Shown in pieces: positions 13,533-18,433 of a DNA stretch of 64,000 nt. How positions within the stretch are numbered: the stretch's first letter is position 1; each line of letters starts with the position of its first letter. The DNA lies in the NCBI GenBank assembly GCA_965222615.1, contig CBDCUI010000008.1, positions 96,001 to 160,000 of the forward strand, in the 5' to 3' direction. This DNA comes from Gammaproteobacteria bacterium (lineage in GTDB: Bacteria; Pseudomonadota; Gammaproteobacteria; UBA4575). A program made the translations under genes and the position numbers. A model generated the notes under the pieces. It did no database searches and was not told the DNA's origin. It saw only the letters and a program-made list of their open reading frames with translations.

Positions 13533-14204
13533 TTATATATCCTCCATAATGGCATTCAGTGTTTTAGCCTGATCAATCATTGGTCCTAATGAAGAGATGT
13601 CGGGTACTGACTGTACTCGGTTTTGTATTTGATTTGCTTCGGCCAAGGTATGGTACAAACGTTCAGAATCTTGCTGTGCTAAATCCTGTACCGAATCTAT
13701 TCCTGCATATACCATCAACTCAGAAATCTGCCCTTCTATTCCAGAGATACGCATGAGGTCACACATACTGGCCCATTTGCGTACTACAAAATCTTCTATA
13801 CCTACTTTTTCTGCCACTTGAATGCGTCCCTCTAGATTGCAGCATTTTTCCAATAATTCTTGGGTAGTGGTTATGCCCATTTCACGTATCGATTTGCCAT
13901 AAGACGCACCGATACCTTCTACCTCTTCGATGGGATAAGCTATTGATTCTGTTGGGGTTATTACTTCAGCTAGTGGTTCTGCAATGGTCGCTGTTGTAAT
14001 GGGTGTTTCGGCTGTTGTGCTAGAGAGCTTGCGTTGTAGATCGTCACGTTCACTTTCAATTTTAGCTAACTTGGCCTGCCAACCTTTATCTAATTCAGCA
14101 AGCTCATCTCGGTAGAATAATTTTTTTAACAACCAACCTACAATTGCGCCAATGAGTGCTGCGAGCAATAAACAAAACCACATTTGTTGAATTAAATAAC
14201 TCAT
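13533..14204 (-). CDS. Membrane-anchored DUF4332 (HhH) domain protein
   Basis: N-terminal TM; IEEVEGIG..Y, LLE, W...CDLMRISGI...SEL...AGIDSV.DLA; overlaps the upstream gene by 4 nt. Confidence 0.8.
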   Translation of the reverse strand: MSYLIQQMWFCLLLAALIGAIVGWLLKKLFYRDELAELDKGWQAKLAKIESERDDLQRKLSSTTAETPITTATIAEPLAEVITPTESIAYPIEEVEGIGASYGKSIREMGITTTQELLEKCCNLEGRIQVAEKVGIEDFVVRKWASMCDLMRISGIEGQISELMVYAGIDSVQDLAQQDSERLYHTLAEANQIQNRVQSVPDISSLGPMIDQAKTLNAIMEDI

Positions 14205-15049
14205 GGTTGAAGCCCCTTTACTTTAAATTCAATTCTTCTATTTTTTGCTAAGCCTTCTTCAGTTTCATTGTCAGCAATCGGTTGCGATTCACCATAACCT
14301 ACTGCAGTTAATTGAGAGGAATCGATGCCTTTGCTTACTAGATAAGATAATACTGCGGATGCACGTTCTTGGCTTAGGCGTAGATTGTATTCGTCCTTAC
14401 CCCGTGAGTCTGTATGCCCACCAATCTCGATTTCAGCATCTGGGCATTGTTTAGTAACTTCTACTAAGTCATTGAGCAAATTGTAACTAGATGTCTCAAT
14501 CTCAGCGCTATTGGTCGCAAAGTGAATTTTATTTGTGCTAAGTAATAAGTCGAAGTCTTGTTGGCAAGTGTATTCTGGTAACGGCTCTAATTTAGGTGTC
14601 GCCAGTACCGTTTCTGGTTGTTCAATTGGCAACTCTTCAACTGTTGAGGGCTCTTCTATTATTGGTAGTTCTTCAACAGTAGGAGGTTCTTCTATTATGG
14701 GTGGTTCCTCACTAGTCGTCATAGGTTCTGGTTGTTCGATTACTTCTTCGTCAGGATCTGACTTCGGTATTACTACAACGAGTCGGTTATTAACAGTACG
14801 TACACCATATACATTCTTAACTAATTTCCCCGCCCGTTTTCTTATCTTGTTACTTGCGACTTTACCGGTGAGTGCTACATCGCGGCCATCGATAGATACA
14901 TTTATATCTTTAAGACCTTCTATCGCCAGCGATGCAACCGTGCGTGTTTGAACGTCGTTTTGAATTTCGGTGCGATGTTGATAGATGCAAAAATAACCAA
15001 GAATTGCTAGTAGAGTTAAACCTAGCAATATGATTAAACCTTTACTCAT
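14201..15049 (-). CDS. BON + OmpA-like peptidoglycan-binding membrane protein
   Basis: TM, BON (GRDVALTG..V.GVRTVNN), Glu/Pro linker, OmpA C-terminal domain (GHTDSRG...N..LSQERA..V; NRRIEF). Confidence 0.9.
   Translation of the reverse strand: MSKGLIILLGLTLLAILGYFCIYQHRTEIQNDVQTRTVASLAIEGLKDINVSIDGRDVALTGKVASNKIRKRAGKLVKNVYGVRTVNNRLVVVIPKSDPDEEVIEQPEPMTTSEEPPIIEEPPTVEELPIIEEPSTVEELPIEQPETVLATPKLEPLPEYTCQQDFDLLLSTNKIHFATNSAEIETSSYNLLNDLVEVTKQCPDAEIEIGGHTDSRGKDEYNLRLSQERASAVLSYLVSKGIDSSQLTAVGYGESQPIADNETEEGLAKNRRIEFKVKGLQP
14622..14710 (-). repeat. Degenerate 18/36-bp coding tandem repeat (EEPPII/EEPPTV/EELPII/EEPSTV/EELPIE)
   Basis: Hexapeptide periodicity in the linker between the BON and OmpA domains. 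Confidence 0.75.
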
Positions 15050-15273
15050 CCAACTCCTCCATTACTATTTTTGAAGTATTGTTTTGTAATGTGCACACTG
15101 TAATATTAATCGTTGCAGTGCTAACTTAATATGATGAGCATTTAAATTGTGCTAAGGCTAACCTAATCACATGCTGCTTGCAATAGTGAAATATTGTTAC
15201 AATTTTGTATTAAAAGAGTTTTCTATATTAAATTGTAATAGTAATGACTGTATATAAAAGTTGTTATCGTTTG

Positions 15274-15489
15274 TTAAGTTAGTCTTTCGTAATTAGGAAA
15301 TGTACAAAATAGAATATCTTCTCCAAAATATACTCGTGGAAATATGCTTTGGGGAAGCCACTCTTTTTTCATCTTAACTTTTTCCATTCTACGTTTCGAC
15401 TTATTATTTTTTCGATGTACACAACCTTTAAATAGCAAAGGGTGATTGTATAATGGATTACGTCTGCACAATTTTGCTTTTTTACTCAT
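15274..15489 (-). CDS. Small basic protein, candidate ArfA-like ribosome-rescue factor
   Basis: AGGAGG RBS; 71 aa, K/R-rich core NPLYNHPLLFKG.VHRK; long hairpin within the 3' CDS (15311-15364). Function is inferred. Confidence 0.65.
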   Translation of the reverse strand: MSKKAKLCRRNPLYNHPLLFKGCVHRKNNKSKRRMEKVKMKKEWLPQSIFPRVYFGEDILFCTFPNYERLT

Positions 15490-15505
15490 ATTGACCTCCT
15501 ATCTG

Positions 15506-15742
15506 TTAACTAATTTGAGTTACTTTGCTAAAAGTACCTTCTTGAATAGCTTTATTGATGTATTCCATAAAAAAGATGGTTTTATCCTCTGCTTTCAATA
15601 CATTATCTTCGATATCATTCAATGGCACAGGAAAACTGTATAGCATTTCACTATAAGGTACAGGCACAGCATAGTACGCTACACCTTGCTGGTAACGTAA
15701 AAATTTTGCTTTAGCATTACTGATTATATTGTTAGCTTTCAT
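15506..15742 (-). CDS. Small hypothetical protein (FPVP...ED motif family), paralog 2
   Basis: TAGGTGA RBS; shares F...G..[WY]Y...FPVP...ED....YI with the adjacent ORF. Confidence 0.8.
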   Translation of the reverse strand: MKANNIISNAKAKFLRYQQGVAYYAVPVPYSEMLYSFPVPLNDIEDNVLKAEDKTIFFMEYINKAIQEGTFSKVTQIS

Positions 15743-15780
15743 AGTTCACCTATATAAAACTTCGTATTTAAACAATAAAA

Positions 15781-15999
15781 TTATGCTGCCTTAGCTTTAT
15801 CCAGTTTTTCGGCGTGAGCTTTGATGTATGGATAAAAGCGTTTAGCGCGGTCTTCATTTAAGAAAACCGACTGCCCTGATCCCTTAATTGGTACAGGAAA
15901 TTTAAAACCGCTATCCGTGCGGTACCACAATTTTCCAGACAAGAAAAACATGAAGCGCACGCTTTCATTGTCATTTATGATTTTTTCTAAATTTTTCAT
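15781..15999 (-). CDS. Small hypothetical protein (FPVP...ED motif family), paralog 1
   Basis: TAGGTGA RBS; GKLWYRTDSGFKFPVP...FLNEDRA..FY.YI. Confidence 0.82.
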   Translation of the reverse strand: MKNLEKIINDNESVRFMFFLSGKLWYRTDSGFKFPVPIKGSGQSVFLNEDRAKRFYPYIKAHAEKLDKAKAA

Positions 16000-16081
16000 G
16001 TTGTCACCTATTTAAAAATTGTCCTCTAGTTGGGTCTGTTATATGTGATAAATCGCTAATCTAATAAAATCATTGGGCATG

Positions 16082-16115
16082 AAAAAACCCCGGTGCTCAC
16101 GCTACCGGGGTTTTT
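16082..16115 (-). terminator. Attenuator terminator (3:4 hairpin) in the 5' leader
   Basis: mRNA AAAAACCCCGGU-AGCGUGAGC-ACCGGGGUUUUUU lies upstream of the small-gene operon, not after a known gene. Confidence 0.85.
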
Positions 16116-16151
16116 GATTTAGTCCGGAAGGTGAGCTACGACCTTCCGGTA
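16082..16151 (-). promoter_or_regulatory. Transcription attenuator with mutually exclusive hairpins
   Basis: 1:2 CCGGAAGGU/ACCUUCCGG; 2:3 GCUCACCUUCCGG pairs with CCGGUAGCGUGAGC; 3:4 is the terminator. Confidence 0.75.
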
Positions 16152-16165
16152 TATGGAAAGTCTCG

Positions 16166-16315
16166 CTACAGGATGCTTTTTACCTGCCCAAATATATGCC
16201 TTAGTAAATAGATCGGGCTACAGAGCATCTTGCTACTTGTGCGCATAAACACCACGGTGTTAGCCCATGATAGGGCCCCTGTGCGCAATCTTGTTTTTTG
16301 CATAAAAATATTCAT
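16166..16315 (-). CDS. Putative leader peptide, 49 aa (MNIFMQKTRLRTGALSWANTVVFMRTSSKMLCSPIYLLRHIFGQVKSIL)
   Basis: Manually translated ORF between the promoter and the attenuator; ends in UAG-C about 15 nt before segment 1; alternative ATG at 16303. Confidence 0.5.
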   Translation of the reverse strand: MNIFMQKTRLRTGALSWANTVVFMRTSSKMLCSPIYLLRHIFGQVKSIL

Positions 16316-16352
16316 CGGCGGCGAACTATACTCTTATAAAAATGAATTGCAA
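16316..16352 (-). promoter_or_regulatory. Sigma70-type promoter with GC-rich discriminator
   Basis: TTGCAA-16 nt-TATAGT followed by TCGCCGCCG on the minus strand. Confidence 0.6.
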
Positions 16353-16486
16353 TATTGAATGTAAAAGCTTATTCAAAAAAAATGGCCGTTTATCAGCATT
16401 TTTAACAAGATTTTTTCACGAATCCAACGAATTCGTCTATTGCATAATAGGGTTGGAACAGGCAAACGAGAATTAGTTCCAGTATG

Positions 16487-16978
16487 CTACTGAATAAATT
16501 CCCAGCGCTTATAGCGGATATACTGATGCATTAACTTATAACCCTCTCGAGTTTCATCTGCAGCTTGTTGACTAACGGTTTGCCAAGCAACTTCATTAGC
16601 ATGAGGGAGATTTTTTTTAAGGGCAGTAAGAAACCCAAGATCCTCATTAATTTGGTTGGTGTCTAGATGAGTTTTGTTTTCTGATGTGTAAGTAAGGGTG
16701 CTATTAGAAAAACTACTTTCATTTAGCTTAAAAACCAGTGAAAATGGATTATTGTGAATAGTAGTGAAGTTAAATTCATAGGCCTTACTAAAAGGGGCCC
16801 TCCCAAAAAAGACCGAGGCGTGATTTAACTTTGATTTAGCGATGTTGTTGCCAATTTTTTTATGACTGGCGCTCGAAGCGGTTTGTTCTAGGTGAGAACA
16901 GTTACTAAAGAGCAAGATTGCCGCTAAAACAAAAATAAGCCTTTGAAGAACATATACCTTCATGTAAAACACCTCCAA
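16487..16978 (-). CDS. Hypothetical lipoprotein
   Basis: Hydrophobic N-terminus ending LFSNC; GGAGG precedes the internal ATG (MKVY), so the true start may be 16963. Confidence 0.6.
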   Translation of the reverse strand: MEVFYMKVYVLQRLIFVLAAILLFSNCSHLEQTASSASHKKIGNNIAKSKLNHASVFFGRAPFSKAYEFNFTTIHNNPFSLVFKLNESSFSNSTLTYTSENKTHLDTNQINEDLGFLTALKKNLPHANEVAWQTVSQQAADETREGYKLMHQYIRYKRWEFIQ

Positions 16979-17108
16979 CCGATACTCCAGTGTAAGCCAC
17001 TGTAAAATAAGTGAGCTGATAGGGACGTTAGAAAGCGGTAATTTACAGACAGATGGTGAGGAACCCTACGGTAAGTATGTAAATCTATGATTAATATATA
17101 TGAATTTA

Positions 17109-17969
17109 TTAAGGGATACTCGTGACAGCATAATCTTTTACATATTTTGGTAATGGTTTTTTCTCTCCACTATGCAGTTTTTCTAGCTCTGTAAATATAC
17201 GAATACGGTCTTCTGTAGATGGATGTGTGTTTAAAAAATTTGGTATTTTGGAAGAACCTATAGCTTCATTTTGAATGGATTGAAAAAATTCTGCGGCACC
17301 TGAGGCATGCCCGTAGTATTTTAGCAGTAAATCCGTCGCGGTCTCGTCGGCCGAAGCTTCTTGGTTACGACTGAACGCTAAATTTGCGATGGATGCAGTT
17401 GGACCAAGAAATTGTTGCACAAAATCACTACCATCTGCCCCAACTAAAGCAAGTAAAAATAAGCCGACCACAATGCTTCTACCGGTACTGCGTAAAGGAT
17501 GCCTTTCATAATGATGTGCCATTTCATGTGCTAGCACCATACTGAGTCCATTCTCAGATTCTACTGATTGTAGTAATCCTCTAGTTACTACAATGTGTCC
17601 GCCTGGGACTGCAAAAGCATTTGCATCGTCAAGCGCCGTTACCGCTACAGTAAATTGGTGTTTTGAAAAATTATCTTCAGTGACACTATGCAGTTGATTC
17701 ACTAGTGTTTGCAAATAATGCTGAACTTTTTCTCCCTCAGCACTACTATCAGAAGGAAAAGGCATTATATATACTTTTTCTTTTCCAAATAGAGATTGCT
17801 CATATTCAATTGGAATGTACCCAACCAAATGATCTGCAGCAAACCCAAGAATTATTACTGCTATTAAAACTAACCCAATTGTCCCTGCTGTTAAAATGAA
17901 AAAAGGTTTTAATGGATGTTCAGGGGTTACATTAATTCCTTCTGGAGGTTGAACAGGGGTATATTTCAC
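17109..17969 (-). CDS. M48 family zinc metallopeptidase
   Basis: NAFAVPGG, HEMAH, FSR.QE..AD, THP...RI. Confidence 0.92.
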   Translation of the reverse strand: MKYTPVQPPEGINVTPEHPLKPFFILTAGTIGLVLIAVIILGFAADHLVGYIPIEYEQSLFGKEKVYIMPFPSDSSAEGEKVQHYLQTLVNQLHSVTEDNFSKHQFTVAVTALDDANAFAVPGGHIVVTRGLLQSVESENGLSMVLAHEMAHHYERHPLRSTGRSIVVGLFLLALVGADGSDFVQQFLGPTASIANLAFSRNQEASADETATDLLLKYYGHASGAAEFFQSIQNEAIGSSKIPNFLNTHPSTEDRIRIFTELEKLHSGEKKPLPKYVKDYAVTSIP

Positions 17970-18433
17970 TACAAATTATTTTCAATAGAAACAGCTGTAC
18001 CATAAGCAAGAACTTCTACTGCACCTACACTATTTCTACGTCGGCTGTTTTTACTTATAGATGAAGTTTCTACGCGAGCATTCATAACAACAAATGCACT
18101 AGAAAGTTGTGCTTGTTCTTTCATGCGCAGTAATGCTTCTCTGCGTGCGCGATCTAGTAGTGATTCATAAGGCGTGATTTTGCCACCGAATAACATTTTT
18201 AGAGAAGCCACGAATTTTTTAAAGAAGTCAATCGATATCACTACATTCCCGCTCACCAGCTCGGTATGTAAACGATTGTGCTTTATCAAAGGTGGAGTTT
18301 TTAATGTAACAATAGGAATATCTAAAGTAGCTTTTTCTCTTTCAATAATAGATTTGAAATGCCTTTTTTCAGCTCGTTGACCAAAGATATAGCCAAGAGC
18401 AAGTAAGGTTAGCAGTACGCCTAATTCAGTCAT
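17969..18433 (-). CDS. YbjQ/UPF0145 family protein with N-terminal TM
   Basis: LV.GNVVIS.D.FK, GG....YESLLDRARREA..RM, EVLAYGTAV. Confidence 0.85.
   Translation of the reverse strand: MTELGVLLTLLALGYIFGQRAEKRHFKSIIEREKATLDIPIVTLKTPPLIKHNRLHTELVSGNVVISIDFFKKFVASLKMLFGGKITPYESLLDRARREALLRMKEQAQLSSAFVVMNARVETSSISKNSRRRNSVGAVEVLAYGTAVSIENNL

Follow-up and report, generated by a model that had tools for sequence, protein, structure and literature searches.

A conserved small-gene operon with two candidate translation-responsive switches in a family of uncultured Gammaproteobacteria

The DNA analysed here is a stretch of 64,000 nucleotides (nt) from Gammaproteobacteria bacterium, lineage UBA4575 (assembly GCA_965222615.1, contig CBDCUI010000008.1, positions 96,001 to 160,000 of the forward strand), referred to below as the window. 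A compact module occupies its minus strand from 16,352 down to 15,274. Reading this strand between 14800 and 16800 together with the list of open reading frames (ORFs) gave a promoter, a 49-codon leader ORF, an attenuator extending to 16082 and three small genes, labelled A, B and C. The initial annotation of the sequence had proposed each of these parts, and all were recovered at the same minus-strand positions. Its description of A and B as paralogs with identical TAGGTGA ribosome-binding sites, and of C as a basic protein of 71 amino acids (aa) with a hairpin inside its gene, was also borne out. The features are:

16352..16325, minus strand: sigma-70-type promoter, with −35 box TTGCAA (16352..16347), 16-nt spacer and −10 box TATAGT (16330..16325); 9 of 12 positions match the consensus
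16315..16166, minus strand: leader ORF of 49 codons, rich in methionine (Met), with stop codon TAG at 16168..16166
16161..16155, minus strand: attenuator segment 1, ACTTTCC, beginning 5 nt past the leader stop; pairs with segment 2
16149..16141, minus strand: attenuator segment 2, CCGGAAGGT; pairs with segment 1 or segment 3
16136..16124, minus strand: attenuator segment 3, GCTCACCTTCCGG; predicted anti-antiterminator with segment 2, antiterminator with segment 4
16110..16082, minus strand: intrinsic terminator, made of segment 4 CCCCGGTAGCGTGAGC (16110..16095), segment 5 ACCGGGG (16094..16088) and a T-run (16087..16082)
16034..16022, minus strand: conserved motif CCCAACTAGAGGA between the terminator and the ribosome-binding site of A
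15999..15781, minus strand: gene A, 72 aa, better conserved than any other gene of the locus; member of phrog_20427
15742..15506, minus strand: gene B, 78 aa, paralog of A, dispensable in part of the lineage
15489..15274, minus strand: gene C, 71 aa, basic, with a conserved core at residues 1-50; member of a widespread unnamed family
15365..15310, minus strand: 25-bp hairpin over codons 42-60 of C, its foot A-rich on the 5′ side and U-rich on the 3′ side; the stop codon lies 33 nt beyond

Gene A was present in 23 out of 56 genomes of one family of uncultured Gammaproteobacteria, in seven of its 11 genera, at 78-96% identity. A conserved leader, attenuator and gene order had been raised by the initial annotation. 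They were found in the form leader, A, (B), C, with the leader and, by tblastn, A in all 23 loci. The other two genes, searched in the same way, were less constant: C was recovered from 22 loci and B from 16, seven loci lacking it, and three of the 16 B copies were truncated or contained stops. Of 24 other genomes in the family, 12 gave a match to the leader DNA, and 16 genomes from other families gave none. When each species was represented by a single genome, the scan returned 20 loci, all from metagenome-assembled genomes, 19 of them titled Gammaproteobacteria, Thiotrichales or Pseudomonadota and one a bin titled 'uncultured Mycobacterium sp.'. Of the window proteins, A had the highest median identity to its counterparts (84%), followed by the C core (70.5%) and B (62.5%), while the downstream BON-OmpA gene had 52% and the upstream lipoprotein gene 36%. 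Since the operon is conserved, and since A and the C core are far more similar than the flanking genes, the operon is real and unusually strongly constrained. The observation is thus confirmed as lying far beyond chance, and the operon is conserved and lineage-specific. Its chromosomal neighbourhood was the same across seven genera. One locus (L030, genome G010) kept the promoter, leader, attenuator and A and had neither B nor C, a convergent gene following soon after A. Neither Pfam nor NCBIfam gave a match for any of the four ORFs (leader, A, B and C).

The promoter match is not significant alone, as a promoter scan found 5 promoter-like sites against 6.6 in shuffled sequence. It carries weight because both hexamers are kept in the upstream regions across genera, where the promoter stretch (query 20-86) was 82-85% identical. 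About 35 nt upstream of the −35 box, at 16386-16394 on the minus strand, a GATAAACGG-like motif recurs in many loci; a regulator may bind there, or in relatives the motif may belong to the end of the upstream gene.

A leader ORF of 36-56 codons was open in all 23 AT-rich loci (18 in a first pass and five by a second parse). Distance statistics cover the 21 correctly parsed loci, and the other two show the same −10 spacing in the sequence print-out. The leader ATG follows the −10 box by 9 nt in 20 of the 21 loci and by 10 nt in one, and the ORF has no Shine-Dalgarno sequence. Transcription usually begins 6-8 nt past the −10 box, so that the mRNA should be leaderless or nearly so. The N-terminus of the leader peptide is conserved as M-x-x-F-(M/I/T)-Q-Q. 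In every one of the 21 parsed loci, 17-23 nt separate the leader stop codon from segment 2 and 55-60 nt separate it from the terminator. Among ATG triplets within the leaders, 83 were in frame and 10 and 11 were in the other two frames; from this excess and the codon bias, the ORF is most likely read in this frame. Met made up 8.8% of leader residues and 2.3% of residues in the long ORFs of the window, a 3.85-fold enrichment, and cysteine (Cys) was enriched 2.46-fold. The binomial p-value for Met, 6e-27, overstates the enrichment because the leader sequences are related. Each leader holds one to seven internal Met codons, scattered and never in a run, with the last Met 0-40 codons before the stop. 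This codon content may tune what the leader senses. In the minimum free energy (MFE) structure of the whole leader RNA, UUCGC at the 5′ end (16320-16316) pairs with GCGAG (16166-16162), at and just after the leader stop. The counterparts at L014, GUUCGC and GCGAAC, are by eye perfectly complementary, and the pairing could be a closing helix of the leader.

The attenuator (16161..16082, minus strand) consists of two GC-rich hairpins. A GTGA tetraloop caps the upper stem of the second, and the TTTTTT behind it ends at 16082. The attenuator had been described as a three-way switch; an attenuator is indeed present, with five segments and four possible helices rather than three alternatives. Helix 1:2 joins ACTTTCC with GGAAGGT, helix 2:3 joins CCGGAAGGT with ACCTTCCGG, helix 3:4 joins GCTCAC-CTTCCGG with CCGGTAG-C-GTGAGC, and helix 4:5 is the terminator. 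A program scan for terminators did not flag 16110..16082, in our reading because its apical part is above the loop limit of the scan. The 248-nt leader RNA folded better than shuffled sequences (z −3.17), one of 200 shuffles being equally good. In an alignment of the 23 sequences, the structure with helices 2:3 and 4:5 was 92.3% paired and that with 1:2 and 3:4 was 83.9% paired, against 30-55% for controls with slid partners. Taken singly, helix 2:3 was 89.9%, helix 3:4 88.3% and the terminator 94.7% paired. One pair of the terminator upper stem changed from CG to UA in three sequences, and helix 3:4 had one compensatory change and was broken in two sequences. The predicted MFE structure of the nascent RNA before segment 5 contained helices 1:2 and 3:4 in 23/23 loci, and that of the full-length RNA contained the terminator in every locus.

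In 23/23 loci the attenuator shares its strand with A and precedes that gene by 49-121 nt. Its core hairpin motif occurs once in the 3.1-Mb genome, so it is not a repeated element. A search of 14000..18000 against Rfam at E<=1 gave His_leader as the sole match, scoring 25.5 bits (E 0.36) where the gathering score is 49. This sub-threshold match spans the two 3′ hairpins. Between the terminator and the ribosome-binding site of A, visual inspection finds the motif CCCAACTAGAGGA at about 20 of 23 loci, a figure not counted by script. The rest of this spacer is variable, at 49 to 121 nt. The motif could be a standby, processing or protein-binding site, and no partner sequence was found for it.

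The hairpin within gene C folds with −12 to −35.5 kcal/mol in 21 loci. Compensatory changes were found at 12 of its 25 pairs across these loci, and none of 500 shuffles reached the observed covariation on any of five measures. The helix was kept with an entirely different sequence at L028. In 19 of 22 loci the stop codon of C comes after the hairpin; the other three have it in the apical loop, all at one alignment column. The reading frame of those 19 loci, and that of many distant relatives, runs on through the hairpin and for up to 135 nt past it. If transcripts end at the hairpin, by termination or by cleavage of the duplex, the message would carry no stop codon in most loci. As judged by its predicted structure and position, this stem-loop ahead of the stop codon corresponds to the non-stop design of arfA and brfA.

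Similar structure was predicted further away. The 100 nt from 20 codons past the KGG motif were structured (z<−2, against mononucleotide shuffles) in 20 of 27 distant C loci, and an upstream control was structured in three of the 27. A scan for the best hairpin in 28 distant loci, run with no control, found the stop codon downstream of the hairpin in 16, within it in 10 and upstream of it in 2; two of the 16 are hairpins within the conserved core. A GC stem with a U-run well before the stop was seen by eye in six distant loci (L080, L081, L082, L087, L095 and L096).

The conserved core of the C protein reads RRNPLxNHPLLxKGGxHxKxNKSKRR...KKEW. Ten residues were invariant in an alignment of 27 sequences (P17, L18, L19, K21, G22, H25, K30, R33, K41 and E43), and conservation fades past KKEW, at about residue 44, where the hairpin begins. 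Distant members share RNP(V/L)xxxPLLxKGGxHxK. A profile of C retrieved 382 representatives at E<=0.001 and 66 at E<=1e-10 among 1.84 billion sequences, and matched 36 of 401 sampled Gammaproteobacteria genomes. Our class-wide tallies include unpublished genomes, namely the C-positive G362 and, in the ArfB tallies, also G350, G196 and G094. Ten distant members of the family gave no Pfam or NCBIfam match.

Homology of C to ArfA was considered and rejected. BLASTP against E. coli ArfA gave E 11, and hhalign against an alignment of 12 ArfA sequences gave a probability of 0.3% (E 0.24). Its sole aligned segment, which has no significance, sets KGGvHrKtnKSkR of C beside KGSYxRKxKHxxR of ArfA. The ArfA family PF03889 had no hit to C, nor to 27 C-family members at E<=10. 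E. coli ArfA chains are present in the PDB. The C sequence gave chance-level matches only among PDB chains, and the C profile at E<=10 gave a single chain, ribosomal protein bL32c (E 1.3). A complex prediction for C (residues 1-52) with the release factor RF2 of this genome scored 0.01; it was run with no controls and counts neither for nor against binding.

The initial annotation had suggested a linkage to rtcB. This was found for the C family outside the lineage and not in the genome of the window, whose single rtcB lies on another contig, unlinked to C. Of 28 distant loci, six have an RtcB-like ORF on the same strand 25-101 nt upstream of the C-family gene and two more have one upstream at about 1.1 kb; together these are L073, L078, L080, L082, L084, L085, L087 and L088. 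A Pfam match (E 4.8e-129) established one of these ORFs as RtcB, and BLASTP clustering assigned the others. Six distant loci (L083, L086, L087, L088, L090 and L092) have an ORF of 315-349 aa with no Pfam match directly upstream of the C-family gene. RtcB and/or this ORF, followed by the C-family gene, looks like a recurrent RtcB module. Its 318-aa RtcB-associated ORF, used as the one query, was not found in the genome of the window. No A- or B-like gene was found beside the 28 distant C-family genes at E<=1. On the other contig (L099), the only rtcB of this genome is preceded on the same strand by a Cys-rich 58-aa ORF and a 356-aa ORF, with no C-like gene beside it. The Cys-rich motif of the 58-aa ORF resembles SEC-C.

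As for known rescue factors, this genome has one transfer-messenger RNA (tmRNA), with the tag ANDDNYALAA, and exactly two genes with an RF-1 domain, RF1 and RF2; no ArfB was found. A search for ArfA gave no match over the cut-off. Within the family, ArfB-sized hits (ArfB being scored as NF006718) occurred in none of the module-bearing genomes and in two genomes of a module-free genus (G055 and G058). ArfA was found in two of 201 genomes of the class, neither of them C-positive. E. coli carries both arfA and arfB (annotation of NC_000913).

A and B are weak paralogs (BLASTP E 3e-5, 26% identity), and both match phrog_20427, a family annotated as function unknown, A with E 9.7e-15 over residues 1-68 of 72 and B with E 5.1e-9. 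A word-based search with the two proteins gave 35 close clusters, all unnamed or 'hypothetical'. The A/B profile was found in three of 400 genomes of the class, all three from this family. Homologs of A were detected with tblastn in 21 jumbo-phage records of 340-460 kb, at 32-39% identity (for example L101 2501-2728, L105 3001-3222 and L104 2992-3228). In Serratia phage BF and Cronobacter phage GAP32, the homolog begins 20 nt past a tRNA-Arg gene, inside a tRNA cluster, a setting that points towards translation. The homolog of Xanthomonas phage XacN1 lies three genes from an ORF annotated as glutamyl-tRNA amidotransferase (GatB-like), and nothing telling was found near that of Ralstonia phage RsoM2USA. 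A note in the annotation of the GAP32 record mentions a similar protein in Acidithiobacillus ferrooxidans. Two jumbo-phage records carrying an A homolog were searched with the C profile, and nothing was found at E<=1.

The best AlphaFold2 model of A had a mean predicted local distance difference test (pLDDT) score of 80.4, the other four scoring 53-66. It comprises a helix (4-10), three strands (13-20, 23-28 and 33-37) and a second helix (52-71). This order resembles a double-stranded RNA-binding domain (dsRBD), an assignment that was dropped, since no dsRBD was among the 50 Foldseek and 50 VIA-align matches listed. Foldseek against the PDB gave nothing at E<=0.001. With VIA-align the best Z was 4.0, and many S1-domain matches scored Z 3.0-3.8, under the noise guide of the tool. 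The best match in BFVD was an uncharacterised marine phage protein (E 7.4e-3). A protein atlas gave no lead for A (best feature score 0.75, for an unnamed cluster), and PADLOC gave nothing for A, B or C. A is basic and extremely conserved, and is the one gene always kept behind the attenuator. From this we infer an RNA- or ribosome-directed role for A, which is the weakest link of our account. A ends in ...KAKAA in most loci and B often in ...KEAA, and the tmRNA tag of the genome ends in ...YALAA. Speculatively, if the two terminal alanines act as ClpXP degrons, A and B might be cleared by the same protease as tagged proteins.

These parts could work together as follows. Transcription from 16352..16325 would give an mRNA starting a few bases ahead of the leader AUG. 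A ribosome with a stop codon in its A site shields roughly a dozen nt downstream; segment 1 starts 5 nt past the leader stop, so a ribosome at the stop would cover it. If the ribosome arrives there while the polymerase is still in the attenuator, segment 2 would be left to pair with segment 3, the terminator 4:5 would form and transcription would end at 16082. If leader translation is slow, stalled or absent, helix 1:2 would form, followed by the antiterminator 3:4, with read-through into A, B and C. The 25-bp hairpin would then end or cut the mRNA ahead of the stop of C, which would be made from a non-stop message. As with arfA and brfA, tmRNA tagging would send the product to degradation except when trans-translation is saturated. 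C would be a ribosome-binding factor of the rescue or repair type, an analog of ArfA and not a homolog, whose KGGxHxK...KSKRR core may probe the empty mRNA channel; this last step is the least certain. The attenuator would chiefly serve to control A, with its paralog B, and A is probably a protein of phage-related origin that binds RNA or the ribosome.

Taken whole, the proposal that the output of the operon is gated twice by the state of translation, first at the leader attenuator and then at a non-stop gene C encoding a rescue or repair-type factor, strikes us as evenly balanced between right and wrong. Its parts differ in strength. Regulation by two switches is well supported in silico: the two stacked translation-sensing switches that had been predicted agree with a conserved leader at a fixed distance and a covarying hairpin ahead of the C stop. 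The rescue or repair function we infer from the design of the gene, the RtcB linkage of the C family, and the lack of ArfA and ArfB matches in this genome.

Several observations weigh against this reading. For the first switch, the covariation of the attenuator is thin, as only two pairs in each structure examined vary at both positions, most columns being invariant. It is weak because the sequence is nearly invariant, and near-invariance could itself be argued to fit nucleotides constrained by two alternative partners. The four-helix model thus rests mainly on predicted thermodynamics and on conservation. When segment 1 was masked or removed, the predicted MFE often still favoured helix 3:4 over 2:3, so the off state must be kinetic, helix 2:3 forming first because segment 3 emerges ahead of segment 4. 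The locus that keeps the leader and A without C (L030) argues that the main cargo of the attenuator is A, whose function is unassigned. For the rescue function, C has no detectable homology to ArfA; its resemblance is one of gene design and composition, as far as sequence comparison goes. The distribution of ArfB is not complementary to that of C, with ArfB in 17 of 36 C-positive genomes and in 194 of 400 overall, and most genomes of the family that are without the module are also without ArfB. The rescue reading is weakened by the absence of ArfA homology and of ArfB complementarity and by the unassigned role of A. The distributions of ArfA and ArfB neither support nor exclude a rescue role for C.

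The hairpin of gene C also bears on both sides. The stop in its apical loop at three of 22 loci is a normal stop, so the tail of C is dispensable as protein. By eye, no other terminator-like element was seen from C to the next gene, at the end of the operon, so the hairpin may simply be the operon terminator. On that explanation, the hairpin merely terminates the operon over a dispensable C-terminal tail, and C is an ordinary small basic RNA- or ribosome-associated protein, for example a helper of RtcB. The linkage to RtcB suits an RNA-repair cofactor as well as a rescue factor, and the lack of ArfA homology and of anticorrelation with ArfB is also in its favour. However, a plain terminator does not account well for a frame open through and past the hairpin in most loci and in many distant relatives, for protein conservation that ends just where the hairpin starts, or for the same layout in unrelated sequence contexts such as L028. 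We consider this explanation somewhat unlikely.

What the leader senses is a separate matter. The input had been thought to be something other than an amino acid, because the genes are not biosynthetic. No biosynthetic gene was indeed found, but the argument is weakened by the in-frame enrichment of Met and Cys, and an amino-acid input therefore cannot be dismissed. The attenuator could accordingly be imagined as a classical sensor of the supply of methionyl-tRNA, perhaps also of cysteinyl-tRNA, or of formyl-Met or one-carbon status, rather than of general translation stress. The frame-specific Met excess and the presence of internal Met codons in every leader speak for such a sensor, and the part of PMC13041342 that models mexXY regulation via armZ includes Fmt and FolD among its factors. 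However, the Met codons are scattered with no run, the last of them stands anywhere up to 40 codons ahead of the stop, the controlled genes are not biosynthetic, and the p-value is inflated by the kinship of the leaders. A specific Met sensor is, in our judgement, unlikely, and we prefer a response to translation in general.

The leader transcript, of 235 nt, might instead be mainly a stand-alone small RNA acting in trans, possibly with a dual function through its Met-rich peptide, A to C being transcribed separately. It has its own promoter and a strong terminator, its terminated form is the thermodynamic ground state, and its hairpin loops and stems are nearly invariant across genera, beyond the needs of a plain hairpin. 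Trans-acting small RNAs and leader peptides derived from an attenuator are described for rnTrpL/peTrpL in the portion of PMC7968998 consulted. Against this stand the constant position of the attenuator ahead of A on the same strand in all 23 loci, the single occurrence of the element in the genome, and a spacer to A that varies in length and sequence except for one motif. The promoter scan, moreover, found no minus-strand promoter-like site between 16082 and the ribosome-binding site of A. We regard a transcript that is mainly a small RNA as quite improbable; such a role and attenuation are compatible and not mutually exclusive.

As another possibility, the genes form a domesticated phage cassette, or one resembling toxin-antitoxin systems, and play no part in translation quality control. 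This would explain the small, tightly packed genes, the phage family and jumbo-phage homologs of A and B and their restriction to three class genomes of one family, but it is very improbable given the shared chromosomal neighbourhood across seven genera, the strong purifying selection, the absence of PADLOC hits and of mobile-element genes in the loci examined, and the A homolog inside a tRNA gene cluster in two phage genera.

Two further observations concern the flanks of the operon. In many relatives (L004/L011 1131-1475, and others), an additional ORF of 114 aa ending in ...RIRRACEKKFR lies between the lipoprotein gene and the operon promoter; by eye, no counterpart was seen among the ORFs of this window. 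At about 15196-15238 on the minus strand, between gene C and the BON-OmpA gene, there is an AT-rich inverted repeat, TTACAATTT...AAATTGTAA, which may be an operator of the downstream gene.

Further small rescue factors unrelated in sequence probably exist and are hard to find by homology, according to the section of PMC8012679 available to us. The locus suggests a way to find them by architecture, that is, by a covarying hairpin ahead of the stop, linkage to RtcB and an upstream switch responding to translation failure. If C is a rescue factor, it would fill an apparent gap in a lineage with tmRNA and with no ArfA or ArfB, and would establish a family that about 9% of the Gammaproteobacteria sampled possess. 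A bolder version, which we hold as doubtful, makes the C family a fourth independently evolved class of rescue factors that recruit a release factor, ancestrally coupled to RtcB, rewired here behind an attenuator that senses global translation, and working with A. A would then be a highly constrained protein that binds the ribosome or tRNA and has counterparts in the tRNA islands of jumbo phages, and the whole a three-part sensor-effector module for translation collapse. Even if C is not a rescue factor, the locus offers a new attenuator RNA absent from Rfam, a rare near-leaderless regulatory leader ORF, and a very strongly conserved small protein common to the tRNA islands of jumbo phages. 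The literature searched, which did not extend to supplementary lists of ArfT-like families, contained no description of this operon or of an RtcB-linked small basic protein. C might conceivably be linked to the ArfT-like family of Burroughs and Aravind (PMC6514570). The module shares features with several known systems.

PrfH pairs with RtcB. The C family is likewise a small gene of rescue type adjoining RtcB in many Gammaproteobacteria, a feature shared with rescue-and-repair modules such as PrfH-RtcB2. Unlike PrfH, C is not a homolog of release factors, and rtcB is unlinked to C in this genome. PrfH is described as a rescuer of damaged ribosomes in the portion of PMC12829566 seen.

Small rescue proteins that depend on a release factor and have no sequence relationship to ArfA have precedents in BrfA of Bacillus subtilis and ArfT of Francisella. 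Like ArfA, BrfA is under the control of trans-translation, as stated in the relevant part of PMC8012679. ArfT has about 40 aa with a KGKGS-like stretch, and arfT has no intragenic terminator according to the sections of PMC6299226 consulted; Burroughs and Aravind placed ArfT in a broad family of repeated charged helices (PMC6514570, main text). C differs in that no Pfam family matches it, and BrfA and ArfT enter this comparison by their description and not by their sequences.

The trpL, hisL and pheL attenuators resemble the present one in having a codon-biased leader ORF, mutually exclusive hairpins and a terminator before the structural genes, and the weak His_leader match is in line with this. 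Unlike them, the leader described here has no run of regulatory codons and no biosynthetic genes downstream, and in our model a complete lack of translation would lead to read-through and not to termination.

The PA5471.1-armZ system of Pseudomonas aeruginosa is closer in its logic. Full translation of its leader leads to the terminator, a stalled ribosome lets transcription continue into a gene that responds to ribosome-targeting stress, and deletion of the leader or an amber codon in it raises ArmZ, as reported in the consulted part of PMC13041342. The same default-on behaviour is predicted here, with completion of the leader leading to termination and stalling or no translation to read-through. 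However, the RNA and the peptide are unrelated. The present leader has 36-56 codons, is near-leaderless and is rich in Met, its attenuator has five segments and one extra helix, and the cargo genes are different.

The gene arfA, from E. coli and other beta- and gammaproteobacteria, is the counterpart of gene C in design. It is an ORF of 72 codons whose stem-loop yields a non-stop mRNA through premature termination or RNase III cleavage (PMC8012679, section on arfA), and the mature protein has 52-55 residues in the corresponding passages of PMC8012679 and PMC6299226. Gene C is likewise an ORF of about 70 codons for a small basic protein, conserved to about residue 50, with a stem-loop inside the ORF ahead of the stop, in a genome with tmRNA and RF2. 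The two have no detectable similarity in sequence or profile, with KGGxHxK...KSKRR in C and KGKGS in ArfA. Unlike arfA, gene C lies with two other genes in an operon behind a leader-peptide attenuator, and elsewhere its family is linked to RtcB.

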